DNA of 64,000 bases. It comes from a virus. The notes below the pieces were generated by a model. It did not search any database. It was not told where the DNA came from and saw only the letters and a program-made list of their open reading frames with translations. How positions within the stretch are numbered: the first letter of the stretch is position 1; every line of letters begins with the position of its first letter. The DNA lies in the IMG/VR virus record IMGVR_UViG_3300022908_000002, positions 1 through 64,000 of that record, one strand, 5' to 3'. Of this stretch, positions 417 to 18,127 are shown piece after piece. A program made the position numbers and the translations under genes.

Positions 417-2609
417 GTGAAAGACAGACGGTTGTCGAAAGTAGATGAACCGGAGAAATCGGAACATCTACCACTGCGGATCGGGGAGGACGTCGCGAAC
501 TCGCCCAATGAAGTCGTGTATGTGCTGACCCGCTATCTCGCAGGGAAATGTGATGGAGCGCGTGTCCCGGACGGACAAGGCTTCAACAAGATTGACGCAA
601 AGCTCGGGCACAGTCTTGCGGAGCAACCGTTCGATCAGTGGACACCGCGTCAGTTGTGGGCAGCACGCAGGATGCTGACTCGGTACAGCAAGCGGCAGTT
701 GCTTCCATGGTGGAGTGCAGTCCCGGACATCGACGAGCCTGTGCGTGCGCGCTCGTCTTCCGATTTAAAACGCGAGCGTGAACAACGCGCAGCCAGTCCT
801 GAGAACCGTGAAGAGCAGCAAACGCGATCCCTGAATATCGACGAGGTCCATGGGAAGCTGTTGCTGGTTCTGCGACAGGAACTTAATCAGGAGTTGGTCA
901 ACGAAATCAAGACCAATATTCCACAGAAGCAGTGGCATCCGAAAGAGAAGTTCTGGAGCGTACCGCTTCAGATCGACTGTTTGGAACCTGTTTTCGACAT
1001 TGCGCTGCGATGGGGATACGACATACCAGATGTTGTCTACCAAGCGTGTGACGTGTTGATGGGTGAGTTCGCTCGGAAGGTTGAATTGAGTTCAGCCGCT
1101 GAGAGCGACTTCGACATTCCCGGACTGAACGGAACACTGTACGGCTTTCAGCGTGCAGGGGTAGAGTATGCGAACACCGTCCATAACGTGTTGATTGCAG
1201 ATGAACCCGGACTTGGAAAGACCATGCAAGCGCTGGGCGCTGTCCAGTCGATGAGCAACTTTCCGGTGATTGTGATCTGTCCTGCTTCGGTGAAGCAGAA
1301 CTGGGCACGAGAAGCGAAGAAGTGGCTTCCACACGTGAAGGTCAAAGTGTTGAGCGGAAGCGCTGAGCCGTTGACACACTTCGATGGATCACCGATCTAT
1401 GACATGGTGATCATCAACTACAACGTCAAGGTCATCGACAAATGGATGACGAATCTGGTCAAGTACAACCCCGGAGCGATCATATGTGATGAGGCCCATG
1501 CGTTGAAAAACCACGCAGCGCAGCAGACGCAGGCCGTTGAATATCTGCTCGAAAACACATCGGCGCGACGGATTTTCCTTTCTGGAACACCCGTTGTGAA
1601 TCGACCGATGGAGTTCTTCCAAATTATCTCCCTGCTCGGATATGCAGACTCATTCGGCGGCGTAGGAAAGTTCAAGCGGCGCTACGACAAAGCGGATGTG
1701 GGTCGTCTCCACGAACTGAACACACGAGCCCGCACGATCTGTCTCGTCAGACGGCAGAAGAAAGACGTGCTGCGTGATCTGCCCGACAAGATGTACACCG
1801 ATGTTCCGTTGGAAATCGATAATCGGGAGGAATACGACCGGGCAGAAGCGGACATCGCTCATTTCTTCGCCATGAAGAAGATTGAAAACGAGAACTGGCT
1901 CACAGAGACGACGATCCATGCCAAGATCAACGCGGCCAAGCTCAAAGTGTCATGGGAAGAGATTCTCGAACATGAGAAGAAGCGGCGGTATCAGGAAGCG
2001 TATGGAATTGGCGCACAGAACGAGCGCATGTTGCGTTGGGAGGCGCTGAAACAGACAGCAGCGAAGGGCAAGCGTTCGCAGGTTCAGCAATGGATCGGAG
2101 AGTTTCTTGCCAACAGTGATGAAAAGCTGGTTGTCTTCGGATTACACACCGAAGATATTGAACTTCTCTCCCGTATGTATGCGAGTAAGTTCGGTGCTAT
2201 TCACATTCACGGTGGAGTCCAAGTGGACAAACGAATGCCGCTCGTTGATCGCTTCCAGAACGATCCCAAGTGCAGACTGATCATCGGTAATATGAATGCG
2301 ATGGGCGAAGGATTGACACTGACCGCAAGTAGTCATGTCTGTTTTTACGAGTTCGGCTGGAATCCGAAAACGATGGATCAAGCTGCGGACCGTTGTCATC
2401 GGATCGGGCAGAAAGACAACGTGATGATCTGGAACCTTGTTGCGATGAACACCATCGACGAAGAGATTGTCCGGCTGATCAACAAGAAGCGGGAAGTCGT
2501 TGATGCCATTCAGGATGGAGCAGGAGCCGATTCACAGATGCGGTTCATGCAGGATTTGGAAGATCGGCTGATGCAGAAGAAGCGTTCTGACGTGGCAACT
2601 CTCCGATGA
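417..2609 (+). CDS. SNF2/RAD54-family helicase (ATP-dependent DNA translocase)
   Basis: 730 aa. Motif I LIADEPGLGKT, motif II ICDEAH, motif III LSGTPVVNRP, C-terminal motifs GEGLTLT and DQAADRCHRIGQ. GTG start follows AAAGGA. Confidence 0.92.
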   Translation: MKDRRLSKVDEPEKSEHLPLRIGEDVANSPNEVVYVLTRYLAGKCDGARVPDGQGFNKIDAKLGHSLAEQPFDQWTPRQLWAARRMLTRYSKRQLLPWWSAVPDIDEPVRARSSSDLKREREQRAASPENREEQQTRSLNIDEVHGKLLLVLRQELNQELVNEIKTNIPQKQWHPKEKFWSVPLQIDCLEPVFDIALRWGYDIPDVVYQACDVLMGEFARKVELSSAAESDFDIPGLNGTLYGFQRAGVEYANTVHNVLIADEPGLGKTMQALGAVQSMSNFPVIVICPASVKQNWAREAKKWLPHVKVKVLSGSAEPLTHFDGSPIYDMVIINYNVKVIDKWMTNLVKYNPGAIICDEAHALKNHAAQQTQAVEYLLENTSARRIFLSGTPVVNRPMEFFQIISLLGYADSFGGVGKFKRRYDKADVGRLHELNTRARTICLVRRQKKDVLRDLPDKMYTDVPLEIDNREEYDRAEADIAHFFAMKKIENENWLTETTIHAKINAAKLKVSWEEILEHEKKRRYQEAYGIGAQNERMLRWEALKQTAAKGKRSQVQQWIGEFLANSDEKLVVFGLHTEDIELLSRMYASKFGAIHIHGGVQVDKRMPLVDRFQNDPKCRLIIGNMNAMGEGLTLTASSHVCFYEFGWNPKTMDQAADRCHRIGQKDNVMIWNLVAMNTIDEEIVRLINKKREVVDAIQDGAGADSQMRFMQDLEDRLMQKKRSDVATLR

Positions 2610-3022
2610 CGCATAAGGAGAATCCCGAGTGGGACAATCCGCGCCCTTGGCAGAAAAACGTAGACCGCGAACAAGCGGTCTACGACATTCTGCGGCACAT
2701 GTTGGATACACGGGGGTATATCCCGCCGATGCCGGAAATGGCCGCTATGTTAGGCATCAAGACGCACAGGTTGTTCATGTATTACCTGCGTCATCTGGAA
2801 GCCAGAGGACTGATCGTGGTTAGGCCCGGCGACAGGAAAAACTACATCGAGGTCGTCGGATTCATGCCGATAGATCGCTTGGACAGGGTACGGAAATATG
2901 CGCGTGCGTGCCTTGCGATGATGCTGGTTGAAGGCAAGTACGATCCTGATTCTGCGCCTTACGCGCGCGCGCACGCGCTTTATAAGGAAGCGAAAGCAGC
3001 GCTCCGGGACGGCGATCTGTAA
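2606..3022 (+). CDS. winged-helix DNA-binding protein (LexA N-terminal-domain-like)
   Basis: 138 aa. AAMLGIKTHRLFMYYLRHLEARGLIVVRPG resembles a LexA/MarR-type wHTH. ATGA overlap with the helicase stop. Confidence 0.55.
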   Translation: MTHKENPEWDNPRPWQKNVDREQAVYDILRHMLDTRGYIPPMPEMAAMLGIKTHRLFMYYLRHLEARGLIVVRPGDRKNYIEVVGFMPIDRLDRVRKYARACLAMMLVEGKYDPDSAPYARAHALYKEAKAALRDGDL

Positions 3023-6774: not shown

Positions 6775-7077
6775 TTGAAGTACGCCCTGACCGACTACTA
6801 CTCGCCCGTCCTGACGACGGCAGAGGACGGTACAGCAAAGACATGGGGAGATGCGCAGGCTGGCGAAATACACATTTTCGACACGCTTGACCAGCTTTTC
6901 GACGAGATTCAAGGCTATGTCATCGACACCACGCCTGCCAACAATCCTACGCTCGGGTCGGTGTTTGCTGTGAATGGATCGCCGCTCGAAATCTATGTCG
7001 GCTTCCAAGTCAATGTCGTTGCCGACGACGACGTTCCCGTATTCAATTTTGATGACGCGGATGATGCCGATGCGTAA
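6775..7077 (+). CDS. hypothetical acidic protein
   Basis: 100 aa from TTG 6775, which lies 7 nt after AAGGAGAGG. The longest-ORF start (6721) falls inside the hairpin. C-terminus is DDDVPVFNFDDADDADA. Confidence 0.55.
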   Translation: MKYALTDYYSPVLTTAEDGTAKTWGDAQAGEIHIFDTLDQLFDEIQGYVIDTTPANNPTLGSVFAVNGSPLEIYVGFQVNVVADDDVPVFNFDDADDADA

Positions 7078-7155: not shown

Positions 7156-7671
7156 ATGAAGTTTACGGTTGCAGAGTTGTCGGTGCTGGAGGACAGCGCA
7201 GAGACGCCGGAGCATCTGCGGGAGTACGTGGAAGCGGCTCTGGACATATCTGAAGGCTTTGATGTCGATATTACGGTCAGTAAGGAGGACGCCAGCCTGA
7301 TCAAGCGGATACTCAACCCGCACTTGTTCATGGCATTGATCCTGTTCATCAGCATGGCATTTGGAATGAGCCAGCACGTATCAGCCATTGGCTACACCAA
7401 TGATTGCAAAGGCTGGGCACAGATGTTGGGTAAGGAAGGAAAGGTGCGAGATAGCATCACCATGAAACGGCTAGGTTGCGACGACAAAAAGTCGCCCACG
7501 CACTATCATGCCACGTTCGATTACAACCGGAATGACTACTGCACCAAGCGCGCACGGTACTACGCTCGCTGGGGATACTTTGGAATGCCGAGGACAGTTG
7601 GAGCCATGGTCGAGAAGGACTTGCCGTTCTGCACAGTCTTCGAGGACGGCTCGTACAGCGCCTACGGATGA
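7156..7671 (+). CDS. hypothetical protein with one central hydrophobic segment
   Basis: 171 aa from ATG 7156, preceded by GGGAGAGATTCG. Contains LFMALILFISMAFGM. Confidence 0.65.
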   Translation: MKFTVAELSVLEDSAETPEHLREYVEAALDISEGFDVDITVSKEDASLIKRILNPHLFMALILFISMAFGMSQHVSAIGYTNDCKGWAQMLGKEGKVRDSITMKRLGCDDKKSPTHYHATFDYNRNDYCTKRARYYARWGYFGMPRTVGAMVEKDLPFCTVFEDGSYSAYG

Positions 7672-9206: not shown

Positions 9207-9851
9207 ATGACCAAAGAGACGCAGACATTTGACGCCGAGATGATCGAGCGCTTGATCATCCGGGAAGTTGTGAACATCCAGAACAGGAACACCTCGGTCG
9301 TACATGATCCGCATGTGCTGAGGGCCGCTGCGGAGACAGCCGTTGATGCACGGAGCGTTGATGTGGCCCGGATGCTCACAGGCATCCGCAAGGACGCCTC
9401 ACGTGAAGAGCTGATGTTCGAGATAGCCGAGCTGATCGACGAGAACGCTCGGCAGTACGAGTTGCTGGTCGAGTTCTATCAGGAAGCCGAGCGAGAGGAT
9501 GCCTATGCGCGCGCAGACGCGCAGATCAATGAAGGCGAGGACGACGATCCCACGTGCATCGAGTGTGGATGGCACCGCAGCGAACACGGTCATCAGGATC
9601 ACTCGTTCCAGCGGAGATTGACCGATGACGAATATGCCGCTGAGCAGCAGCGGTTTGTGATGGAAGCCGACATTGAGAACGGCAGCTATCCGTATGATCC
9701 CGACGAGGATGAAGCCGACGATGATGATCTCATGGGTATCTGCAAAGTTTGCGGAAAGGAAGGCGATATTGGAAGCGGCTACTGCGACGAGCACCATGTG
9801 TCGAATGAGGATGAACTGACGGCTCTACTGGAAAGCCTGAGCGCGAAGTGA
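9207..9851 (+). CDS. hypothetical zinc-binding protein
   Basis: 214 aa, preceded by GGGAGAGATTCG. Contains CIECGWHRSEHGH and CKVCGKEGDIGSGYCDEHH. Confidence 0.7.
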   Translation: MTKETQTFDAEMIERLIIREVVNIQNRNTSVVHDPHVLRAAAETAVDARSVDVARMLTGIRKDASREELMFEIAELIDENARQYELLVEFYQEAEREDAYARADAQINEGEDDDPTCIECGWHRSEHGHQDHSFQRRLTDDEYAAEQQRFVMEADIENGSYPYDPDEDEADDDDLMGICKVCGKEGDIGSGYCDEHHVSNEDELTALLESLSAK

Positions 9852-10180
9852 TCGTCATCCGGGAAGTCTGGAAGTCGGCGCAGGACAAGGATGCGAACGG
9901 CGAATGGATCTTCGGTGAGGAAGAACTCACCGATCCGATGTGCTTCCGAAACGCCGATAAGGAGTATGCCGATAGAGAAGTCGCCGAGACGATCAAGCAC
10001 ATCAAAGAGGATGGCCCTCTCCAAGTCACCGGAAGCTATGCGGCGCAGTTCGTGCGGATCGAAATGACCACGATCAGCTTTGCCGAGTGGAAGGAGAAAT
10101 ACAACAAATGGGATTACGGAGGAATGGTCGGGGTTATCGACTGGTGTGAAGAGCACGACTGGCACGGGGAAGAGGAATAG
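9848..10180 (+). CDS. hypothetical protein
   Basis: 110 aa. GTGA start/stop overlap with the upstream gene. Confidence 0.65.
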   Translation: MIVIREVWKSAQDKDANGEWIFGEEELTDPMCFRNADKEYADREVAETIKHIKEDGPLQVTGSYAAQFVRIEMTTISFAEWKEKYNKWDYGGMVGVIDWCEEHDWHGEEE

Positions 10181-10744: not shown

Positions 10745-11272
10745 ATGCCGTTGACACAGGAGCAATTCGACGCCAAGTTCGCTGGAGTCGAAATGACCGA
10801 CATAGAGCGGTCAAAAAAGATGCGGATGTATGGAATCAAGCCGCCAGTTGAGCGGGTTGTAGAACTGAGCGCAAGCGGACGGGTCGTCCGCAAGCGTGGA
10901 GTTGGAGCCGCTGGAATCGCACTTGTCCAAGCCGAGCAGGACGCGAGAGTGGATGCCGCTCCGAATCCCCCGAAATACTTCGGCGGACAGTTCCGTTTGA
11001 TGCCCGTGCCGGAATGTGGAGTGCTGGCCGTGTACATGAAGTACATCACGGCTGAGTATCCAACGCTGAAACTGAAAGCCGTCTGTGCGACGTGCCGCTG
11101 TGAACTCGCGCATGAAGACCCCGAGAACTACATCGGCAAAACGAAAGTGCTCGGAATTGCCAGCGATCACACGCGCAGCACTGTGAACCATGCCGTGTAT
11201 GTGCTCGACGAGAACACCGGAATGTATTTGTACAAGAGTCCATACCGGATTCTTGCAACCTGTAGCAAGTAA
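10745..11272 (+). CDS. hypothetical protein
   Basis: 175 aa from ATG 10745, preceded by GGGAGACACATCA. This is the last + strand gene before the island. Confidence 0.7.
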   Translation: MPLTQEQFDAKFAGVEMTDIERSKKMRMYGIKPPVERVVELSASGRVVRKRGVGAAGIALVQAEQDARVDAAPNPPKYFGGQFRLMPVPECGVLAVYMKYITAEYPTLKLKAVCATCRCELAHEDPENYIGKTKVLGIASDHTRSTVNHAVYVLDENTGMYLYKSPYRILATCSK

Positions 11273-12016
11273 ACCGGATCGAGACGGCAACTGAGGAAAT
11301 ACCAGAACGAGACGGCATCAGAAATGATGCCGCGTAGAACGAGATTGGTACGGGTAGCCGAGCCAAATGAAATCAGGATCAACCGGGCCAGTTATGGGAA
11401 CCGACCGAGCACAGAAATGGTTCGGTTCTGTATTCACCCAAGGCATAAGGCCCGAGGATACGGAACCGTCATCAAGCGGCAGGAAACGGTGGCCATGGGA
11501 AATGAGTACGTCGGTGTGCTGCTCAAAACGAGACGGCAGCAAAGGCAACCGAGGACTAACCGGCGTCAGAAATGCAGGGAACGCATGGAACCAACCGGAT
11601 GCGGGATCAGGTCCAACCGGCCCGAATAGCGCTCCCTGACCAGCGCTCCCCGGCAACAGAAAAAAGGCACGACAGGAAGGGAATCGCTCCAGCTCCCCCG
11701 AGAACGGCTGCGTACACCACACCTAGCCACGTCAAGGGAGCGCCACCCGCCAGCAGCAACGCAGGCAGCAACATAACCCCCAATAGCAGAAAAGGCATGT
11801 TCATCTCTAGAGGTAGATATATAAAGGCGAAGCAGCAGAGAAAGGCAGATAAGACAGATATAGGCACAGAACGCAACCAGAATGACGCTACCGCAATGAA
11901 GTGGGATGAAACGTATGGGAACGCATATCACGGGAAACATCGCATCAGCAACGCCAGTACAGCATGGGATCGGCATCAGGCAGAGGGCGGGGGAAGCCTT
12001 TACCTAACCTCCCCGC
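11273..12016 (+). other. ORF-less purine-rich (T about 12%) segment; candidate long non-coding or 3'-UTR RNA, or a cis-acting DNA element
   Basis: No ORF here has an RBS or protein-like sequence. CGAGACGGCA occurs 3 times (11280, 11308, 11529). CAGAAATG occurs 3 times (11319, 11412, 11567), at least once in a hairpin loop (ggcatc-agaaat-gatgcc). AACCGG occurs 5 times. Confidence 0.4.
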
Positions 12017-12117
12017 TTCATTCATGGCTAATTTATGCGTCCACGCAGCGATTGCAGGCTGCCCGCGCCGATAAATTGAGCCTGACCGTGCTCCCGAGCG
12101 CCAACCGGTTTTCGGCA

Positions 12118-12625
12118 CGCCAAGGTGCGCCGCGCCGCGCCTATAAGACTGTGTCGGCCTGTTGTACGGGACGGTTATGTGATCTTCTGGCTACGTGTGG
12201 GTGGTTACTCTCCCGACCGAGGCGGGCGGCGGTTCGCCTAGCCGCGCCGATTGTGCTGGCCGCAATTGCTGCGCTCGGCGCGGAACGGTTCGGTTTTCGG
12301 TGGACCCCGCGCAGGGTACACCGAACCGAGGCAAGAAGTCAAGGTGCGCCACCGTCCGGCGTGTTATTTTCGGGGATGGGAATGTCAAGCCGGGCCAAGG
12401 CGCGCCGATTGGGAATGAACCGGCCTGTGGTACGGGACGGGAACGGTATTCCTTGGCTAGGCCCGGCTGGTTACTTTCCCGGCAGGCGGCGGCGGTGGTA
12501 TGCCACGGCGGGCCGGGCGGGACGGCGGCGAGGCGGGCCGGGATTTTTTGGCGCGCCGAGCCGCGCCACGCGGGGCAGCCGGTGGCGGAGCCGGGCCGAG
12601 AATGAACCGGCCCGGCTTGTGCGCG
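12118..12625. repeat. GC-rich degenerate direct repeats (period about 285 bp, plus partial copies)
   Basis: gccaaggtgcgccg...cggcctgttgtacgggacgg...ggttactctcccg at 12118-12240 matches gccaaggcgcgccg...cggcctgtggtacgggacgg...ggttactttcccg at 12404-12520. A partial third copy (gaatgaaccggcc) lies at 12597. Confidence 0.6.
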
Positions 12626-12627
12626 AG

Positions 12628-12664
12628 AGAGAGACTCGCGCGCAACTCGCGCGCGAGTCTCTCT
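12628..12664. repeat. 16-bp perfect inverted repeat at the convergence point of the island
   Basis: agagagactcgcgcgc-aactc-gcgcgcgagtctctct, 8 nt beyond the stop of the minus-strand ORF 12672..12863. No U-tract on either strand. Confidence 0.7.
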
Positions 12665-12671
12665 TGCTCAA

Positions 12672-12863
12672 CTACTGCGAGAGCAACTCTAGTTGCTCTT
12701 CCAGTGTGTCGAGACGCTCAACGAACTCTTCTACGTCTCGCGTCATGTTTGCGAGTTGCTCTTGCTCGAACTCTGCGCACTCGCGCGCGTTATCTATCGC
12801 GCGTTGGAGTTGCTCACTCGCGCGATTAAGTCTCGCAATTGCGAGACTACTGTTAAGCGTCAT
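12672..12863 (-). CDS. hypothetical 63-aa coiled-coil protein
   Basis: MTLNSSLAIARLNRASEQLQRAIDNARECAEFEQEQLANMTRDVEEFVERLDTLEEQLELLSQ. Heptad-like and highly charged. Start taken at the ATG at 12863 (longest ORF extends to 12998). Confidence 0.5.
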   Translation of the reverse strand: MTLNSSLAIARLNRASEQLQRAIDNARECAEFEQEQLANMTRDVEEFVERLDTLEEQLELLSQ

Positions 12864-12889
12864 GTTGCTCTCTCTCTTCCAGTGTGAGT

Positions 12890-12917
12890 GAGAGAGCGCG
12901 CTATCGCGCGCTCTCTC
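12890..12917. repeat. 12-bp inverted repeat between the two minus-strand ORFs
   Basis: gagagagcgcgc-tatc-gcgcgctctctc. Confidence 0.6.
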
Positions 12918-12924
12918 TTGCTCT

Positions 12925-13674
12925 CTAACTCGCGCTCTGTTTCGCGAGTGCTTGTGCGAGTTGCTCTTGCAACTCTCTGATCGTCGCGTCTCGCTCACTC
13001 GCTAGCGCGAGTGCTTCTTGCTTCTCGCGCTCTGCGTTAGCGAGTTGCTCTGCGTTGATACGTACTGTCTCGCTCTTACTCCGTTTCGCATTTTCTGCGT
13101 CAGTCGCGTGAGACTCGACAATAAGTTGGATGTGATTGTTGAATCGCGTAATCACATTTTTGAGCGCTCTGCGTTGATCCGTTGGATACGTACTCGCATC
13201 GTCGCTCTTCTCTTCCAGTATTTCGCTCTTCTCTACTCCGTCCGAGAAGTAGTAGCGCACTGGAATCTTGCTACTCTTCCATGTTCCGAACTCCGTCCTT
13301 GTAAGTGTGAACTCGTGTCCGAACACGTAGTAACTCGCGACAGTCCTATCCGCGTTCCAGTCTCGCGAAAAGAGCGTTTCATTTCGCTCTCTCTCTGTGA
13401 GACTGTCGAGCGCTATTCGCACTACTGCGCTACGGAGTAACTCCGTCTCACTAGCGAGAGTGTTGATCGTCTCTGCGATCAACTCTTGCTCCGTGAGCGT
13501 CTCGCTCTCGCGTGTCTCGCTCTCGCTCAACTCGCTCACTGCGCTCTCGCTCACTGCGCTCTCGCTCTTGCTCTTGCTCGTCATTCTGTCGCTACTCTCT
13601 ACGCTCACTCCGTGAGCGCTCACACTCTCGCGCGCTCTCAATTGAGCGCGCGTCACATACACACTGCGACGCAC
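12925..13674 (-). CDS. hypothetical protein: Ser/Glu-rich N-terminus, central globular part, coiled-coil C-terminus
   Basis: 249 aa from a GTG start, or 219 aa from ATG 13584. Contains the tandem SESAV SESAV. The central segment WNADRTVASYYVFGHEFTLTRTEFGTWKSSKIPVRYYF looks protein-like. The coding strand is purine-rich, as in all other genes here. Confidence 0.6.
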   Translation of the reverse strand: MRRSVYVTRAQLRARESVSAHGVSVESSDRMTSKSKSESAVSESAVSELSESETRESETLTEQELIAETINTLASETELLRSAVVRIALDSLTERERNETLFSRDWNADRTVASYYVFGHEFTLTRTEFGTWKSSKIPVRYYFSDGVEKSEILEEKSDDASTYPTDQRRALKNVITRFNNHIQLIVESHATDAENAKRSKSETVRINAEQLANAEREKQEALALASERDATIRELQEQLAQALAKQSAS

Positions 13675-13783
13675 TGCGTCGCTCTCGCGTCTCTCATCCG
13701 TCTCCGATTCTCAATTACTGCGTGAGCGCTCTCGCGTCGCTCTGTTGATCGCACTAGTGATCGTCTCACTATCAACGCTCTCT

Positions 13784-13813
13784 TTTATAACGCATTGACT
13801 CTCGCTCTGTCAA
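13784..13813 (-). promoter_or_regulatory. minus-strand promoter of the island operon (TTGACA-18 nt-TATAAA)
   Basis: Reverse complement reads TTGACA gagcgagagtcaatgcgt TATAAA, the same 18-nt spacing as the 12 + strand promoters. It is embedded in the palindrome ATTGAC-9 nt-GTCAAT. Confidence 0.55.
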
Positions 13814-14073
13814 TGTGAGCGAGAGTCTCTCGCGTACGTATGTGAGCGTCTCGCTCTCGCTCAACTCCGTGAGCGCTCAACATATATGTGAGTTAGTTAG
13901 TACATTCATTGTAATTTTTTCAAATAATGCACCCTGACCCCCAACCTCGGGAAGAAAAAAGTCAGCAGAAACGGCACGCTCTAGCGAGTGCAGCGTCCCC
14001 GTGCAACGCAGCGAGTGAGCGCATCGCCCGCAAAAAATGAGAAAAAATAGCGTCAACTACCCAAATGGGGAGA

Positions 14074-14103
14074 TTGACAGCGAGATTGTTCCCAGCGTAA
14101 AAA
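14074..14103 (+). promoter_or_regulatory. candidate promoter (TTGACA-18 nt-TAAAAA)
   Basis: TTGACA at 14074-14079, spacer gcgagattgttcccagcg, TAAAAA at 14098-14103. The -10 element is weaker than in the other promoters. Confidence 0.4.
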
Positions 14104-14109
14104 ATTGAG

Positions 14110-14213
14110 CATGGGGTGGGGGCAGGGTGCTAGGGGCGTAGCGGGCACGCAGGCACATAGTTCCGCTACGAAAAGCGAAGTTGAGTAGGTGAGCGCGAAA
14201 TCGCGCTTTTTTG
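14110..14213 (+). ncRNA. candidate ~105-nt small RNA
   Basis: Promoter at 14074. Four G-tracts at 14113-14136 (ggggtgggggcagggtgctagggg). Hairpin cgtagcgg (14137-14144) / ccgctacg (14163-14170). Terminator at 14192-14212. No ORF. Confidence 0.35.
14191..14213 (+). terminator. rho-independent terminator (+ strand orientation)
   Basis: agcgcg-aaat-cgcgct followed by a T6 run. It abuts the stop codon of the convergent minus-strand gene. Confidence 0.65.
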
Positions 14214-14219
14214 TGCCTG

Positions 14220-14636
14220 TTATTTGATGAGTTTCAGTCCCATGCGTGCTCGACGTTCGTTCCACGTCTCTGCGCGGGAAATAAAATCGAGCGCTTTCTT
14301 GGCGTCTCTCTCGTTGCGGTTTCTGACGCGCAGAACGACGATGCCGCTCACTCTGAGGTTCTCGGAGTCACGGAAAGCGTCGTATCGCTTGTTGTGCTCG
14401 GGTCCATCGACTTCGACAGCGATCCCGAGCGTGTGGCACCAGAAATCGAAAATACGGAACCCTCGTTGACTCTGCCGACTCCATTTGACGTTGGTTTGAG
14501 ACAGTTTGTCCGCCATCCAGTGTTCATTGGGATTACGCAGGGATATTTCCAGATTTTGCTTCTGGCGCATCTTCATGTGCGCTGCCTGCTCCGCGTTCCA
14601 TGGGTAATTCATCGGCTTGTGTTTACGGTTCTTCAT
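14220..14636 (-). CDS. DUF559 / Vsr-like (restriction-endonuclease-fold) endonuclease
   Basis: 138 aa from ATG 14636 (longest ORF extends to 14714). FRIFDFWCHTLGIAVEVDGPEHNKRYDAFRDSENLRVSGIVVLRV matches the DUF559 pattern (R.DF...iEvDG..H....D..R...L...G..vlR). Confidence 0.65.
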   Translation of the reverse strand: MKNRKHKPMNYPWNAEQAAHMKMRQKQNLEISLRNPNEHWMADKLSQTNVKWSRQSQRGFRIFDFWCHTLGIAVEVDGPEHNKRYDAFRDSENLRVSGIVVLRVRNRNERDAKKALDFISRAETWNERRARMGLKLIK

Positions 14637-14716
14637 AGATGAAAAACTCCACTGTCTCAGCCCGGATAATGACGTAATTATACTGTAATTGACGTAGGTC
14701 ATCCTTTTGACCATAC

Positions 14717-14746
14717 TTGACGCGACTTGTCACCATGGATTATAAT
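14717..14746 (+). promoter_or_regulatory. early promoter P8 (TTGACG-18 nt-TATAAT)
   Basis: Spacer cgacttgtcaccatggat. It restarts + strand transcription directly after the island. Confidence 0.75.
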
Positions 14747-14786
14747 GATAATGACGATTTTGTCACGTAGTCAGGGAGAAAACGGT

Positions 14787-15587
14787 GTGGAAGAGAACGC
14801 CATCAGGAGTGATTTTAGTGGACGCTGGTTGTCGTTCAAACGACTCTCCCCCGAGCAGGTCCGGGAGATTACTCGCACGCCTCGCAATGCTGATTGGCGT
14901 GCGTTTTACGGTGATCCCGCATTGAAACAGCGCTTTCTGGAACGGGCGGCAGATCACCGGGCTGCGGATCAGATCGTGCACGGGGTCTACTGGAGAACCG
15001 ACGAACGCTGGGACGACAGCAAAGCGGAATACAAAGCCGTCAATATCGGGTGCGCCGTGGGCTGTCTCAGTCATGCCAGTGAGAGCGCGCATCATGTGCT
15101 TAGTAAGTTGACCGGCGTGCCCCAAGCACTCTATCAACTGACCGATATGCTCTTCGAGAGCCACGGACTAATGAACGGGCTGGATACGGAACTGCCGGGT
15201 GATGTGATGGCCGCCATCCCGGTCGGATCGGATCAGTCACGCACCGCCTATCGGATCATGGCCAAGCTTGCCGTCGAGAGCGACACGGTCTGGGATGAGC
15301 ACCGCGCGAATCTGCTCCGGGTACTGAATAGCGATGCGACACCCAAGGAGATGTTCACGGTGTTGAAGGAGTCGGTCCGGGACGGACATACCCTGCACGT
15401 CTACGGGATCACAACCTTTCTCTGGGAACGCATGGCAGATCACGTCGATCCTAATGAACTACGCACCATCATGCTCGACGAACTTGCGAAGGCTCCTGTT
15501 CCCGTTGTTGCGGTTCCGGCAGAGCAACAGTCAATGGCTGACTTCATGAAAGAGTTCGTAGTGGAAACGGAGAAGGTGCTGTCGTGA
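14787..15587 (+). CDS. hypothetical protein
   Basis: 266 aa from GTG 14787, after AGGGAGAAAAC. The longest-ORF start (14727) lies upstream of the -10 element and so is probably not transcribed. Confidence 0.65.
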   Translation: MEENAIRSDFSGRWLSFKRLSPEQVREITRTPRNADWRAFYGDPALKQRFLERAADHRAADQIVHGVYWRTDERWDDSKAEYKAVNIGCAVGCLSHASESAHHVLSKLTGVPQALYQLTDMLFESHGLMNGLDTELPGDVMAAIPVGSDQSRTAYRIMAKLAVESDTVWDEHRANLLRVLNSDATPKEMFTVLKESVRDGHTLHVYGITTFLWERMADHVDPNELRTIMLDELAKAPVPVVAVPAEQQSMADFMKEFVVETEKVLS

Positions 15588-16787: not shown

Positions 16788-17471
16788 ATGAAGTTTCGGA
16801 AGTTCGCCGTCGATTCCAGTAAGTTCAATCTGATCGACAAGGTGCTCAATAGCTCGCACGGGAATAATTTCCGCACGAATCAGACGGGTATCCCCGATAT
16901 GTGCGTCATGGAAGCAGCTTCGTGGGTGACAGGCCGGAAAGCCAAAACGGATCACCCCGAATGCACCGACGGCCACTTGACCGCGTTCTGTATTTCCATG
17001 AATGACGCGCTGGGTGATCGTGTGTTCCGCGATGCCAAGACCTATCAGCTTGTCACCGCAGATGATCTGCGCGCGAAATATCTGAAGCCGCTCATTCCGG
17101 CCATCATCAACACCCGGTTGATCGTCCATTACGTCTCGCCCGAGGAAAAAGCGCAGGGCTATCAGCCGGGATCAGCAATTGATTACCCCCGCTCTGAACG
17201 AACCGCGCTGTTGCTCACGCAGTTGCAACACACCCAGCATTCGTGGTTTGACGACGTCACCAACAAATACGATCTGGAAACTGTCGAGCGGGTCTATCAA
17301 GATCGCACCGATCTGATCCGCGCGGCGGCAGCGTCCATGAAAGCAGATATTCACGCCTACCGTGTCGAAAAAGGATGGAGCCGGGCACGATCCACGCCAC
17401 CCGCTCAGACTGATGCGGCTGCGTGCGAAATCGTCTACGCGGGCGCTCTCCATGAGGAGGTCATCTCATAA
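16788..17471 (+). CDS. hypothetical protein, MCVMEA-motif paralog 2
   Basis: 227 aa from ATG 16788 (longest ORF starts at 16716). PDMCVMEAASWVTG and LKPLIPAIIN. The N-terminus aligns with paralog 1. Confidence 0.7.
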   Translation: MKFRKFAVDSSKFNLIDKVLNSSHGNNFRTNQTGIPDMCVMEAASWVTGRKAKTDHPECTDGHLTAFCISMNDALGDRVFRDAKTYQLVTADDLRAKYLKPLIPAIINTRLIVHYVSPEEKAQGYQPGSAIDYPRSERTALLLTQLQHTQHSWFDDVTNKYDLETVERVYQDRTDLIRAAAASMKADIHAYRVEKGWSRARSTPPAQTDAAACEIVYAGALHEEVIS

Positions 17472-18127
17472 TGACGCCCATAACGTATACCCCTACATTC
17501 GGGGACGCCCTGCGCTCGGTGCGGCGCGCACGCGGATTGAGCCAAAGCGATCTGGCGGAAATACTGGGGATTAGTAACGGCACGATTTCCAACTGGGAAA
17601 CCGGCTCAACCCACTTCGTCAATAAGGAGCATCGACAGCAACTGGCCTTTGCGCTCGGACAACCCCCTGACTTTTTTGAAGGGATGCTGTTCGGGAAGCA
17701 ATTCAAGCCGGGTGTGGAGCCGAACACGGACTTTTCCAGTGCATTGATGCAGGCCGCGGAAAAACTGTCGGTTGTCGAAGATATTCGCAATTTGCGTCGC
17801 GCCGATTCGCAAAATCTGCTGTCTCACGCACCCGCGACGCACAACGTGTCGTCTCCCCATAACGGGATCATGGGCGACAAGATCGTTCCCATCCACGGCG
17901 CAGGACGATACCCCAGCGATGTCCAGTACGCCGTCCGCATCATCCAGAGAATCTACGAAGACTGGCTCTACCATCCGGAGAAAACCGGCGATCACTGGTG
18001 GTTCTATCTCGCCGAAGTCCTGCTCCACGAACTCACCACCGATGATTTCGCCCGCCTGCGTCTGACGTTACCGACCGGTCCGGACAGGCCCCCGCAGACG
18101 ACTGTGACACGTGCCGATGACGTCTGA
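17471..18127 (+). CDS. XRE/Cro-C1-type helix-turn-helix transcriptional regulator
   Basis: 218 aa. LRSVRRARGLSQSDLAEILGISNGTISNWETG is a typical HTH_3 motif. The C-terminal ~140 aa are unassigned. Confidence 0.8.
   Translation: MTPITYTPTFGDALRSVRRARGLSQSDLAEILGISNGTISNWETGSTHFVNKEHRQQLAFALGQPPDFFEGMLFGKQFKPGVEPNTDFSSALMQAAEKLSVVEDIRNLRRADSQNLLSHAPATHNVSSPHNGIMGDKIVPIHGAGRYPSDVQYAVRIIQRIYEDWLYHPEKTGDHWWFYLAEVLLHELTTDDFARLRLTLPTGPDRPPQTTVTRADDV

Follow-up and report, generated by a model that had tools for sequence, protein, structure and literature searches.

The interval 11273-14716 of IMG/VR record IMGVR_UViG_3300022908_000002 (positions 1 to 64,000, a 64,000-nt stretch hereinafter designated the window) is not a single island but a conserved module, passed on vertically within an uncultured group of soil/rhizosphere phages, that later received one small insertion. 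The module comprises, in order, a spacer (region A), an element (region B), a perfect hairpin, a minus-strand operon (ORF1 and ORF2, hereinafter the cassette) and a non-coding block designated D-left. Its core is a self-contained unit of the type read by host RNA polymerase, made up of a σ70-like promoter, a leader of ~190 nt, ORF1, ORF2 and GC-rich hairpins. The duplex DNA of this unit is actively maintained free of the trinucleotides GGC, GGG, GGT, GCC, CCC and ACC (GGB/VCC) in five lineages.

The initial annotation had described the interval as organized completely differently from its flanks. Re-examination confirmed this picture, together with the coordinates of every component listed between 11273 and 14716. 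By k-mer statistics the interval is also the window's strongest compositional outlier; the segment 12751-13750 has the highest dinucleotide-signature distance of all (z = 6.4). The statement that all other genes lie on the + strand was checked solely through gene calls, over 3.5-24 kb of the contig.

Conservation of the module and a later insertion

The cassette is kept beside a B-like element in the L002 group, in L016/L017, in L018 and in L019; in the distant relatives that carry the module, neighboring proteins are 36-87% identical to those of the window. L002, L003, L006 and L008 are 78-83% identical to the window over region B, the cassette and D-left. In L018, an A-like region, a B-like region, a hairpin, the cassette and D-left lie between homologues of window genes, including a homologue of the 181-aa gene; in L016/L017, the cassette faces an operon encoding an about-280-aa protein and an HTH protein, followed by region B. 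L019 carries the GGB/VCC-free tract, D-left and, in the position of region B, a GC- and GGB/VCC-rich stretch with no detectable sequence similarity to B. Wherever a contig reaches far enough, D-left (L002, L016, L018 and L019) and the A-like spacer (L018) are retained, and the conserved start of region A is seen in L010 and L018. The variable parts are the DUF559 gene with ~160 bp of adjoining DNA, and small extra + strand genes left of region A in relatives.

These comparisons bear on the proposal that the phage acquired the whole 3.4 kb recently, as an accessory or mobile island (a moron or exclusion cassette) that separates the 181-aa gene from promoter P8 and has its breakpoints at 11273 and 14716. 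Deviant composition and strand speak for it, as does the absence of homologues among GenBank phages, plasmids and IMG/VR; the minus-strand operon does have the classic promoter-gene-terminator anatomy of a moron, with its own σ70 promoter, genes and hairpin terminator. Yet four further lineages hold the cassette module, ordered and at the syntenic position in spite of the divergence of the flanking proteins, the divergence of ORF1, down to about 35%, parallels that of the flanks, and neither presence/absence polymorphism of the module nor a module-free relative was found. Insertion behavior is limited to the DUF559 gene and its ~160 bp. For the interval as a whole the proposal is thus largely refuted, and we regard it as extremely improbable.

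The minus-strand DUF559 (Vsr-like) endonuclease gene (14220-14714) was correctly recognized: its product matches PF04480 with E = 1.6e-9, above Pfam's cut-off, and PDB entry 3hrl ('endonuclease-like protein') with E = 0.005. The assembly's own gene call is shorter (138 aa, 14220-14636). The gene and ~160 bp (~14060-14716) are absent from the syntenic place in L016/L017, and genome comparison identifies the gene plus the terminator-bearing 160 bp as an insertion between D-left and the divergent promoter region, found in the window's lineage only. Within the inserted DNA, a + strand small transcript of ~105 nt (14074..14214) is a weak candidate, with a possible TTGACA-18-TAAAAA promoter (14074-14103) read by eye and not reported by the promoter scan, and a hairpin followed by T6 (14191-14214). 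The transcript body has no excess structure (z 0.07), and the segment is absent from L016.

At the right border, the promoter scan reports P8 (TTGACG-18-TATAAT, 14717-14746, + strand) back-to-back with a leftward promoter (GTGACA-16-TATAAT, 14766-14739, minus strand). Window positions 14717..14766 align with L016:5440-5497, where the scan finds one consensus match, TTGACG-18-TATACT on the minus strand (5495-5466), the counterpart of P8. A candidate cassette-ward promoter on the L016 + strand, ATTGACA-16-TATAAC, was read by eye and is not in the scan; if real, it would directly face D-left and the cassette.

The cassette operon

The predicted cassette promoter, TTGACA-18-TATAAA (13784..13813, minus strand; TTGACA at the complement of 13808-13813 and TATAAA at that of 13784-13789), was found as annotated and is kept in relatives. 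L002 retains both hexamers, L003 retains the –35 hexamer with TATATT as –10, and L006, whose contig begins inside the spacer, retains the –10 hexamer; the equivalent position in L016 reads ATGACA-17-TACAAT. The promoter position implies a 5′ leader of ~190 nt (13585..13777, minus strand), which is highly conserved and moderately structured (folding z = -2.56). One leader hairpin is kept with a different stem in L002, CGCGCGCT/AGCGCGCG versus CTCGCTCTC/GAGAGCGAG as read from the alignment. Upstream of the promoter, a 46-48-bp segment between GAGCGAGAG/CTCTCGCTC (13816..13863) is inverted in L002/L003 relative to the window, on the basis of secondary plus/plus BLAST matches and the alignment. 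D-left (13891..14060), a non-coding block upstream of the cassette, contains TGCGGnCG and CTCGCTAG boxes, T runs, CAGGG and ACAATGAAnnnACTAAC; it is conserved in L002, L003, L016, L018 and L019, and its first 40 nt lie inside the GGB/VCC-free tract and the rest outside.

ORF1 (12925-13584, minus strand; 219 aa, starting at M31 of a 249-aa ORF) and ORF2 (12672-12863, minus strand; 63 aa, helical, and called at 63 aa in relatives) are, judging from codon-position differences, real genes under purifying selection, with starts shorter than first noted. Differences from relatives over the three codon positions are [24,12,70] for ORF1 and [9,9,20] for ORF2, with an excess at the third position in both. 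ORF1 evolves fast; its relatives come from metagenomes only and fall into a set 84-100% identical and a set 27-37% identical. Homologues of ORF2 lie downstream of ORF1 in L018 (38% identity), L016 (35%) and L019 (16%), and family searches with ORF2 gave no significant match. Between the two genes lies a GC-rich palindrome with a CGCGCGC core (12890..12917), and in L016 an equivalent perfect hairpin follows each cassette gene.

ORF1 consists of a disordered, acidic Ser/Glu-rich N-terminus, three helices (residues 32-71), a six-strand β domain (72-123) and a long coiled coil (137-218), modeled by AlphaFold2 with a pLDDT of 79.5. Its profile has CopG as top match in the PDB (E 0.067; residues 4-39 of 45, nearly all of CopG), and the predicted helix pattern at residues 32-60 fits a ribbon-helix-helix (RHH) fold; the CopG match is below significance, and no RHH family in Pfam was matched. 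The model has no structural neighbors in PDB or BFVD, and family and structure searches with ORF1 and ORF2 revealed no resemblance to known anti-defence, defence, replication or partition proteins. The remark that no component has an assignable function is therefore nearly true, the exception being this weak RHH-type (CopG-like) signal. ORF1 may bind DNA through its RHH-type N-terminal domain and oligomerize through its coiled coil, and would probably act on repeated motifs and palindromes of its own leader and upstream region (autoregulation), possibly also on region B.

The perfect palindrome (12628..12664; 16-bp arms 12628-12643 and 12649-12664, 100% complementary, with a 5-nt loop) folds with -37 kcal/mol (z about -5) on either strand. 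It is the shared end point of the predicted convergent units, in agreement with the convergent transcription proposed initially. The palindrome recurs in L002 (with a flipped loop), L006 and L008, and has positional equivalents in L016 (7177-7210) and L018 (1547-1572). The L018 hairpin is followed by a T run, as in a canonical terminator; on the cassette strand of the window, no U run follows the palindrome. A switch of the purine-rich strand had been placed exactly here: purine content and GC skew do change at the palindrome, but AT skew changes sign at ~12.0 kb, the border between regions A and B.

Regions A and B

Region A (11273-12010, + strand) is a non-coding, T-poor and purine-rich spacer (A 238, C 194, G 214, T 92; 61% purine, 12% T). 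The reported ~0.74 kb devoid of credible ORFs stands: coding scores are negative in all six frames (11240-11780), the 101-aa and 439-aa + strand ORFs are not conserved as reading frames, and comparison with the A-like region of L018 gives no frame conservation (best tblastx E 0.019). The L018 region is composed like that of the window (14% T, 63% purine); the strand asymmetry of region A is retained although the sequence has changed. At its start lies a conserved motif block, A1 (11273..11402, + strand; GGCRACTGAGGAAW ... GGCATCAGRA ... AACCGGGCCAG), which is 77% identical to L010:1724-1845, compared with only 70% for the flanking genes. The core motifs of A1 directly follow an intrinsic terminator in L018; the window has no terminator between the 181-aa gene and region A.

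Region B (11985..12627; 67% GC over 12011-12627) is a conserved non-coding element very rich in GGB/VCC. It had been described as GC-rich degenerate direct repeats; it is GC-rich and degenerate, but consists of two units of ~265 bp that share boxes (GGTTTTCGG with a hairpin; CGGCCTGTKGTACGGGACGG; TGGTTACTnTCCCG..GGCGGCGG) rather than short tandem repeats. Near-invariant blocks, such as 43 nt around GGCTAGGCCCGGCTGGTTACTTTCCCGGCAGGCGGCGGCGG, are found in L002 and L016/L017, and region B matches L016 at 83-87% identity where neighboring genes reach 66-82%. Indel lengths in region B are not divisible by three, and L002 has no gene call there.

Region B, perhaps along with region A, could specify a large structured non-coding RNA, produced when transcription of the upstream + strand operon runs on as far as the palindrome. 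Consistent with this, B folds with z = -3.6, its consensus structure is better on the + than on the minus strand (-128.6 versus -98.0 kcal/mol), pairs changed on both sides number 33 on the + and 14 on the minus strand, one hairpin shows a clean compensatory change of two pairs (CCC/GGG versus TGC/GCA), and the window is terminator-free ahead of region A. However, Rfam searches stayed empty up to E = 5, only three sequences enter the covariation term, which is about 0, and the G-rich strand is always the better folder because G-U pairs are allowed. In L018 the intrinsic terminator precedes region A, and region A shows no excess of RNA structure (z +0.96). We consider such an RNA unlikely.

A tract free of GGB/VCC

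Not a single GGB/VCC occurs on either strand in the 1317 nt between 12615 and 13931, a tract that starts ~120 nt ahead of the operon promoter and runs up to the hairpin. Elsewhere in the 64 kb, free runs measure 89 nt at most and the density is 9 per 100 nt; by our own arithmetic a 1317-nt free run has a chance of ~ e^-118. This DNA had been called GG/CC-depleted, which is correct in degree (odds ratio 0.14 versus 0.83 genome-wide), but the true form is a trinucleotide rule that tolerates GGA/TCC: on the sense strand, 21/21 GG are GGA and 5/5 CC are TCC. The tract measures 1302 nt in L002, 1547 nt in L016/L017, 1401 nt in L018 and 1384 nt in L019, and all 246 GG/CC among the 6.9 kb of pooled tracts are GGA/TCC. 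The 233 substitutions relative to L002 create no GGB/VCC, where 52 ± 7 are expected, and permutation of synonymous codons predicts 17 ± 3, where none is observed. The 465 non-coding nt, including the DNA upstream of the promoter, are equally free, and both strands follow the identical rule. The edges are razor-sharp, with dense sites within a few nt outside on either side and no gradient, and the tract extends 80-190 nt upstream of the promoter across lineages. Because the rule holds in five lineages (with ORF1 27-37% identical), at coding, junction and non-coding positions alike and with sharp edges, it indicates selection acting on duplex DNA and suggests that the two-gene unit is kept invisible to some DNA-reading factor.

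The tract is also rich in short repeats and palindromes, whose words differ between lineages. Regions A and B could form a cis-acting site of the phage (a replication origin, a partition or centromere-like site, or a packaging site) with ORF1 as its RHH-type binder, encoded next to it; the odd composition of the cassette would then stem from densely packed binding motifs or from nucleoprotein architecture, and not from evasion. RHH proteins such as omega, ParG and CopG recognize short repeats set in arrays, ORF1 combines an RHH-like domain with a coiled coil, region B with its two units and near-invariant boxes is conserved at least as well as coding genes, and region A preserves asymmetry over sequence. 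The A-B block of L018 is, moreover, bracketed by convergent intrinsic terminators and therefore insulated from transcription. Binding arrays, however, predict motif enrichment and not the categorical loss of six trinucleotides from coding, junction and non-coding positions, and would sit uneasily with lineage-specific repeat words. Region B has neither an AT-rich unwinding region nor a global switch in GC skew, and no partner ATPase or initiator was recognized nearby. This makes a cis-acting site rather unlikely.

A footprint of localized hypermutation, for example by a context-specific deaminase acting on a heavily transcribed unit, would explain the rule without selection, and fits the over-representation of AG/CT and GA/TC, the rapid evolution of ORF1 and a tract GC content 3-8 points below the flanks in L016/L018. 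It agrees poorly with ungraded edges that take in promoter-upstream DNA, with the near-unchanged GC content in the window (54% versus 55%), with CG and GC as the most enriched dinucleotides and with strong purifying selection on ORF1 and ORF2; moreover, we know of no deaminase that hits ACC, CCC and GCC yet spares TCC. We judge it quite improbable. Still less probable, and very unlikely in our view, is a constraint at the RNA level, whereby sense and antisense transcripts lack GGB against a sequence-specific endoribonuclease (a toxin or abortive-infection RNase). Precedents exist in MazF-type toxins with 3-nt specificity and in mRNAs that naturally lack such sites, converging units make antisense read-through possible, and the tract ends at the terminator hairpin; but the tract begins upstream of the predicted promoter, bidirectional transcription of exactly one segment would be needed, and D-left, part of any transcript from a distal promoter, is not site-free.

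The absolute, strand-symmetric and sharply bounded absence of GGB/VCC makes avoidance of a DNA reader the best explanation. Selection would exclude from this one unit, between promoter and terminator, a motif that some damaging factor recognizes on double-stranded DNA; candidates for this factor are a nuclease that cuts or nicks frequently, a surveillance step of the PAM type and a base-modifying enzyme. A conserved module with an ORF1-type regulator, its unit held free of GGB/VCC against such a reader, is the reading we prefer, tentatively and at somewhat less than even confidence; our best guess, held with low confidence, is that the unit is immune to some nuclease, surveillance or modifying activity that reads DNA. 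If true, the unit would stay intact and expressible while other DNA is attacked or altered. GGB/VCC density is normal in the remaining phage genome, and an attacker would therefore still strike the genome, an objection to the idea that shielding this unit alone would pay. To our knowledge, GGB/VCC specificity has not been described for any nuclease, PAM, methylase or DNA-binding protein. The exemption of GGA/TCC is at odds with the CC PAM of type I-F and with the NGG PAM, and since the L016 tract also contains CCGG, as TCCGGA, the rule is explained neither by known PAMs nor by type II sites taken together.

Genome-wide avoidance of restriction sites is extreme, with 16 six-bp palindromes and CCWGG absent, so these phages evolve under heavy pressure from DNA-reading defences. 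Genome-wide depletion of CC (PAM) has been reported for Pseudomonas phages (PMC12174588), and the success or failure of restriction can depend on whether a motif is locally absent from a particular genome region that acts early (PMC12455610).

Trinucleotide ban in the cassette DNA

No other part of the window deviates as strongly in dinucleotide signature as the interval 11273-14716 (z = 6.4), and every component listed for it by the initial annotation was found in its assigned place. It contains a minus-strand two-gene operon with its own promoter (hereinafter designated the cassette), comprising ORF1 and ORF2. The annotation had described the cassette DNA as depleted in GG and CC; the depletion is real, but not as a matter of dinucleotides, since GGA and TCC are allowed. 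The 1317 nt from 12615 to 13931 hold 26 GG/CC dinucleotides and not a single GGC, GGG, GGT, GCC, CCC or ACC (these six triplets are hereinafter designated GGB/VCC, and a stretch free of all six a tract). On the cassette sense strand, each GG is followed by A and each CC is preceded by T. In the rest of the window GGB/VCC occur at 9 per 100 nt and the next-longest free run measures 89 nt; calculated from the window density, the chance of a 1317-nt free run is about e^-118. The borders are sharp: on either side, closely spaced GGB/VCC begin within a few nucleotides.

Amino-acid or codon usage alone is ruled out as the cause by two results. Permutation of synonymous codons with the ORFs' own codon usage kept gives 16.7 +/- 2.8 forbidden triplets (minimum 7 in 2000 trials) compared with none observed, and the 465 nt of non-coding DNA in the tract, some 120 nt of which lie upstream of the -35 hexamer, are equally devoid of GGB/VCC. 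The cassette proteins are adapted to the triplet rule: glycine makes up 1.1% of residues (8.0% genome-wide) and proline 0.7% (4.1% genome-wide), all glycine codons are GGA, tryptophan is always followed by a codon beginning with A, and proline is preceded by a codon ending in T.

The ban, together with the anatomy of the cassette, extends to four more lineages known from related metagenome contigs. The tract spans 1302 nt in L002/L003/L006/L008 (78-83% DNA identity to the window), 1547 nt in L016/L017 and 1401 nt in L018 (ORF1 about 35% identical in both), and 1384 nt in L019 (ORF1 37% identical, P0011), and in every lineage GGB/VCC density in the flanks is normal or high. When the tracts of the window, L002, L016, L018 and L019 are pooled (6.9 kb), all 246 GG/CC dinucleotides lie in GGA or TCC, which are not avoided and are enriched in L016 and L018. 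The 233 substitutions separating the window and L002 tracts created no forbidden triplet, while random placement with the same substitution spectrum creates 52 +/- 6.6 (minimum 31). These data show that selection-like forces acting on DNA keep the ban in place. Both strands lack the triplets and have been kept so through divergence. Localised hypermutation may lie behind the absence of GGB/VCC, as may resistance at the RNA level; because the ban is strand-symmetric and absolute and covers apparently untranscribed DNA upstream of the promoter, it is most simply a constraint on duplex DNA. To our knowledge, a sharply bounded and maintained GGB/VCC-free expression unit lying beside a GGB/VCC-rich non-coding element has not been described.

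Some other words also deviate in the pooled tracts. AGCT is strongly under-represented (22 observed, 92 expected), as is CCTC/GAGG (4 observed, 23 expected), and GGAA, CAGG and ACGG are over-represented.

Genes, promoter and hairpins of the cassette

Comparison with relatives places the true start of ORF1 at Met31 (12925-13584, 219 aa) and that of ORF2 at Met46 (12672-12863, 63 aa), making both shorter than the maximal ORFs. The proposal of two minus-strand genes with their own promoter is borne out by the relatives: differences fall mostly at third codon positions (24, 12 and 70 at the first, second and third positions for ORF1; 9, 9 and 20 for ORF2), and both hexamers of the TTGACA-18-TATAAA promoter (13813-13784, minus strand) are kept at the consensus level. 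A hairpin follows the last cassette gene in all lineages, taking the form of a canonical terminator in L018 (likewise at the consensus level) and, in the window, of a perfect palindrome with arms of 16 nt each (12628-12643 and 12649-12664). The cassette of L016 holds homologues of ORF1 and ORF2 and one further small gene, with a perfect GC-rich hairpin after each. The cassette is thus shown to be a genuine operon of two genes, equipped with hairpins and a consensus promoter of its own. The perfect GC-rich hairpins after each cassette gene share a CGCGCGC core (L016:6569-6595, 6930-6956 and 7177-7210; window 12890-12917 and 12628-12664), and their outer stem bases are lineage-specific.

The leader and the DNA upstream of it are rich in short repeats and palindromes. 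The 12-bp palindrome GTGAGCGCTCAC is present there in one perfect and two one-mismatch copies (13612-13623, 13722-13733 and 13869-13880), against an expectation of 0.29 for the window as a whole. This palindrome is identical to the symmetric lac operator core and resembles the SlmA site GTGAGTACTCAC. The repeat words differ in distant lineages, being of the GCAAGCG type in L016. Two small inversions distinguish lineages. Immediately upstream of the -35 element of the cassette, a segment of 46-48 bp (13816-13863; L002:252-299) between GAGCGAGAG and CTCTCGCTC has the opposite orientation in L002/L003, and the 5-nt loop of the large palindrome (12644-12648) is flipped in L002 (AACTC vs GAGTT). 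These inversions suggest template switching or recombination at inverted repeats.

The cassette belongs to a conserved syntenic module

Sequence comparison with the relatives shows the interval to be a conserved syntenic module with a single insertion. Over 7.8 kb of its 10.3-kb contig, L016 carries homologues of the window 280-aa, 265-aa, 96-aa, 251-aa and HTH (218-aa) proteins and of the following genes in the same order and relative orientation (36-87% protein identity), together with a divergent promoter region, a block resembling the conserved non-coding block upstream of the cassette (13891-14060, hereinafter designated D-left), the cassette itself and then a homologue of the GC-rich element that adjoins the cassette (region B). 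L018, read in the window orientation, contains a homologue of the window 181-aa gene, an additional gene of 106 aa, an intrinsic terminator with a U6 run (-34.7 kcal/mol), a T-poor stretch (14% T, 63% purine) resembling the non-coding spacer of the window (region A), a GC-rich stretch resembling region B, a canonical terminator hairpin, the cassette and D-left. In L010, whose flanks are 70% identical to those of the window, an additional 86-aa gene is followed by a stretch matching the initial 130 nt of region A at 77% identity; core motifs of this block at the start of region A, common to L010 and the window, recur in L018. No relative without the module was found, and each of the five lineages recovered has the cassette in syntenic position. 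The initial annotation had considered a mobile or accessory island. This does not apply to the module as a whole, for which synteny is kept and no recovered relative lacks it, and survives only for the segment carrying the DUF559 gene. The cassette resembles phage morons, which are autonomous units of promoter, gene and terminator known for instance from lambdoid phages, in its sigma70-type promoter, hairpin terminator, opposite orientation and deviant composition, but it is found in every relative recovered, syntenic and co-diverged, whereas morons by definition occur sporadically among related phages.

An extra + strand gene stands between the homologue of the 181-aa gene and region A in two relatives (86 aa, L010:1474-1734; 106 aa, L018:2761-3081). 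The L018 106-aa product resembles that of the window 110-aa gene (9848-10180), and the strong intrinsic terminator of L018 (2712-2745) precedes region A.

The DUF559 gene (14220-14714), adjacent to the + strand promoter P8 (14717), was correctly assigned: over profile positions 29-99 of 109 its product matches PF04480 at 38 bits (E 1.6e-9), above the Pfam gathering score of 20.6, and it also matches an 'endonuclease-like protein' in the PDB. This gene and about 160 bp to its left, comprising a + strand terminator and a candidate small RNA, are absent from L016/L017, where the promoter region abuts D-left. The absence of the segment from L016/L017 shows the DUF559 gene to be an insertion acquired later in the window lineage. 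Compared with other DUF559/Vsr-like endonucleases, this one is encoded by a free-standing phage gene inserted in one lineage only, and a Vsr-type repair role is unlikely because CCWGG is absent from the phage. For the small RNA proposed at 14.1-14.2 kb, the + strand terminator is present, but a structured RNA was rejected (folding z 0.07). The 5' end of this candidate small + transcript bears a canonical G-quadruplex motif, GGGGTGGGGGCAGGGTGCTAGGGG (14113-14136), one of three in the window.

Non-coding regions A and B

Region A (11273-12010) has 12% T, 61% purine and 55% GC. Over 11240-11780 each of the six frames scores negative for coding, and over 11780-12049 the score is weakly positive (+6 to +7, in the low gene range); region A has no excess RNA structure (z = +0.96). 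Two + strand ORFs of 439 and 101 aa across regions A and B were rejected as genes, because relatives have indels that disrupt their frames, L002 lacks a gene call there and the coding score for 11240-11780 is below zero. A small membrane protein on the minus strand of region A (11607-11803) was rejected for want of coding signal and conservation.

Region B (12011-12627) has 67% GC and consists of two degenerate units of about 265 bp with common boxes, namely GGTTTTCGG followed by a hairpin, CCAAGGnGCGCC, CGGCCTGTKGTACGGGACGG and TGGTTACTnTCCCG...GGCGGCGG. Several boxes are near-invariant across the window, L002 and L016/L017. BLAST segments of region B are 83-87% identical to L016, compared with 66-82% for neighbouring coding DNA. 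The segments between boxes vary, with indels whose lengths are not divisible by three, and L002 has no gene call on region B. In composition it is the opposite of the adjoining cassette, being saturated with GGB/VCC (43-47 per 200 nt in L016/L017). A search of IMG/VR and of 185,579 genomes of bacteria and archaea found no copy of its most conserved block. Region B is a well-conserved phage non-coding element of no recognised type, and the phage group that carries it is absent from reference collections.

Region B may be a non-coding RNA. It folds more stably than shuffled sequence (z = -3.6), and the hairpin TTTCGGTG-GA-CCC-CGCGCA-GGG-TA-CACCGAA has two compensatory pairs in relatives. Against this, Rfam 15 gives no gathering-score match in the whole window and chance-level hits only over 11000-15000 (E >= 0.5), and the covariation term is about 0 on either strand. 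As the latter is computed from three independent sequences, it does not discriminate between a structured RNA and a DNA site. Regions A and B together may alternatively form a cis-acting DNA site served by the ORF1 protein. With respect to the hallmarks of a phage or plasmid replication origin, region B has repeated conserved boxes; there is no AT-rich stretch (region A has 55% GC), no global skew switch and no identified initiator. A location of region B at a global skew switch was rejected, and G-quadruplexes were discarded as the purpose of region B because canonical motifs occur in some lineages only.

The contigs of L016, L017 and L002, from three independent assemblies, all end within about 40 nt of the border between regions A and B (~11985-12030), and a Logan contig of the same phage (L015) ends inside region A at ~11708. 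Repeats, strain variation or a physical DNA end could account for the contig ends at the border.

ORF1, a putative RHH-type DNA-binding protein

All ORF1 relatives are metagenomic. Five are 84-100% identical, and an exhaustive search of 1.8 billion representatives recovered four more homologues at 27-37%. With these homologues the AlphaFold2 model of ORF1 reaches a pLDDT of 79.5, compared with 54 for an earlier model from a shallow alignment. It comprises an acidic, disordered N-terminus, three helices (residues 32-47, 51-60 and 64-71), a beta domain of six strands and a coiled coil 80 residues long. Foldseek comparison of the model with the PDB and BFVD returned no neighbour at E <= 0.001.

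Searched against the PDB, the ORF1-family profile has its best match, which is not significant, in the RHH repressor CopG (E 0.067, 15.8 bits, residues 4-39 of 45); no family member matches a Pfam RHH family at E up to 1. By eye, the segment ...LASETELLRSAVVRIALDSL fits the RHH helix-turn-helix pattern. The RHH fold runs beta strand, helix, helix; the AlphaFold2 monomer has helices 32-47 and 51-60 without an N-terminal strand. Judged from this match and the model, ORF1 is a putative DNA-binding protein of the RHH type, probably autoregulatory. RHH operators often consist of short repeats and palindromes like those near the cassette. Comparable known systems are the RHH regulators CopG of pMV158, Arc/Mnt of P22 immI, omega and ParG. 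CopG is the PDB entry that best matches the N-terminal 40 residues of ORF1 by profile; P22 immI, like ORF1, sets a small gene beside repeat- and palindrome-rich DNA with convergent transcription. ORF1 differs from these proteins in the low score of the match and in its additional beta domain and 80-residue coiled coil, which are without structural neighbour, and neither a partner ATPase nor a Rep or antirepressor is present.

The ORF2 protein is short, helical and conserved. When ORF1, ORF2, the DUF559 protein and flanking proteins were compared with PADLOC-DB, only sub-threshold matches of the coiled-coil type were obtained, the best being BrxA to the 63-aa ORF2 (E 5e-4).

Motif avoidance and possible readers of GGB/VCC

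DNA-reading defences clearly exert intense pressure on this phage. Of the six-bp palindromes, sixteen with 5-38 expected copies are missing from the 64-kb window, including CGATCG (0 observed/38 expected), GTCGAC (0/26), CCCGGG (0/21), GGATCC (0/20), CTGCAG (0/19) and GATATC (0/18). CCWGG is likewise missing, and CCGG, GCGC and CGCGCG occur at expectation. In Autographiviridae, absence of a Type I R-M motif from the early-injected region decides sensitivity (PMC12455610), and Pseudomonas phages show CC-PAM depletion (PMC12174588). The cassette ban resembles such restriction-site or PAM avoidance in that short motifs are missing on both strands and kept missing by selection. Unlike it, the ban concerns a degenerate class of 6 of the 64 triplets with GGA/TCC exempt, and is total over the 1.3-1.55 kb of one transcription unit in an otherwise normal genome. 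A type I-F CC PAM or an NGG PAM was rejected as the cause, as neither exempts TCC/GGA. A union of type II sites containing GG or CC was also rejected: TCCGGA, which contains CCGG, occurs in the L016 tract, and CCGG, GGNCC and CCNGG are common genome-wide. A literature search for a factor reading GGB/VCC yielded no candidate, and we know of no enzyme, PAM or other system with this specificity.

An absolute zero, with sharp borders that match one promoter-to-terminator unit, is expected where even one site would do harm; it would be less expected from graded effects, for example pausing or codon adaptation. The ban would then reflect a need for the unit to lack a motif that is read on duplex DNA, since one site may expose it, as physical DNA, to cleavage, nicking, targeting or modification. 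We raise, as a possibility that we hold to be rather unlikely, that the cassette is the fingerprint of an undescribed activity reading GGB/VCC on duplex DNA, its complete immunity allowing the RHH-type protein and its small partner still to be made under attack or alteration. Candidate readers would include a host defence nuclease or surveillance step and a phage-borne DNA shredder or modifier, and the GGB/VCC-saturated region B could be the matching sink or target. Because no GGB/VCC system is known, GGA/TCC are exempt and a single unit is immune in a site-filled genome, we have low confidence in the mechanistic part of this evasion reading. First-step transfer in T5 offers a conceptual likeness only: a small early unit works there while other cell DNA is destroyed, and it adjoins long non-coding repeats and palindromes at the injection-stop locus. 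Our module differs in showing no sign of two-step injection, of a nearby genome end or of a cassette nuclease, and there is no similarity in sequence or structure.

Motif avoidance is among the few read-outs of the DNA-recognising defences facing a virus that can be had from sequence alone. The read-out here is unusually clean, being a categorical, strand-symmetric ban on six trinucleotides in one unit with nucleotide-sharp borders, which has persisted through divergence of the encoded protein to about 30% identity. Should the ban reflect evasion, a GGB/VCC specificity found in no characterised restriction, CRISPR or modification system is indicated, and the phage genes needed under attack are marked as candidates for new anti-defence or regulatory functions. 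Even if nucleoprotein architecture or hypermutation is responsible, a 1.3-1.5 kb coding segment subject to so strict a triplet ban provides a useful natural experiment on how a DNA-level constraint shapes proteins.

The phage and its relatives

The phage is tailed, encoding a large terminase, a major head protein, tail proteins and an SNF2-type helicase. Exact protein look-ups place the window at positions 2823-66822 of a 71,290-bp ENA metagenome contig (ERZ27228639 k141_1674049). GenBank phages contain no DNA-level relative of the window in near or distant similarity modes, and its terminase is at most ~45% identical to that of any GenBank phage. Genes neighbouring the interval are mostly orphans. 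Pfam, PHROGs and PADLOC gave nothing beyond DUF559 for the ORFs and flanks. Scans of IMG/VR and of GTDB genomes with protein patterns and DNA motifs found nothing, tBLASTn with the ORF1 family found no match among GenBank phages and plasmids, and the sole match in a JGI metagenome scan was a contig already among the relatives. All relatives found are short metagenome contigs of soil/rhizosphere type. No tRNA or tmRNA was found in the window.

Gene products at 2606-3022 and 17471-18127 carry a LexA-type DNA-binding domain (PF01726, E 7.7e-6) and a Cro/C1-type HTH (PF01381, E 7e-10), respectively, which hints at repressor-type regulation; there is no integrase among the genes examined. A second, weaker dinucleotide-signature outlier spans 41000-43250 (z 2.1-2.5), within a 1940-aa ORF (40969-46791).
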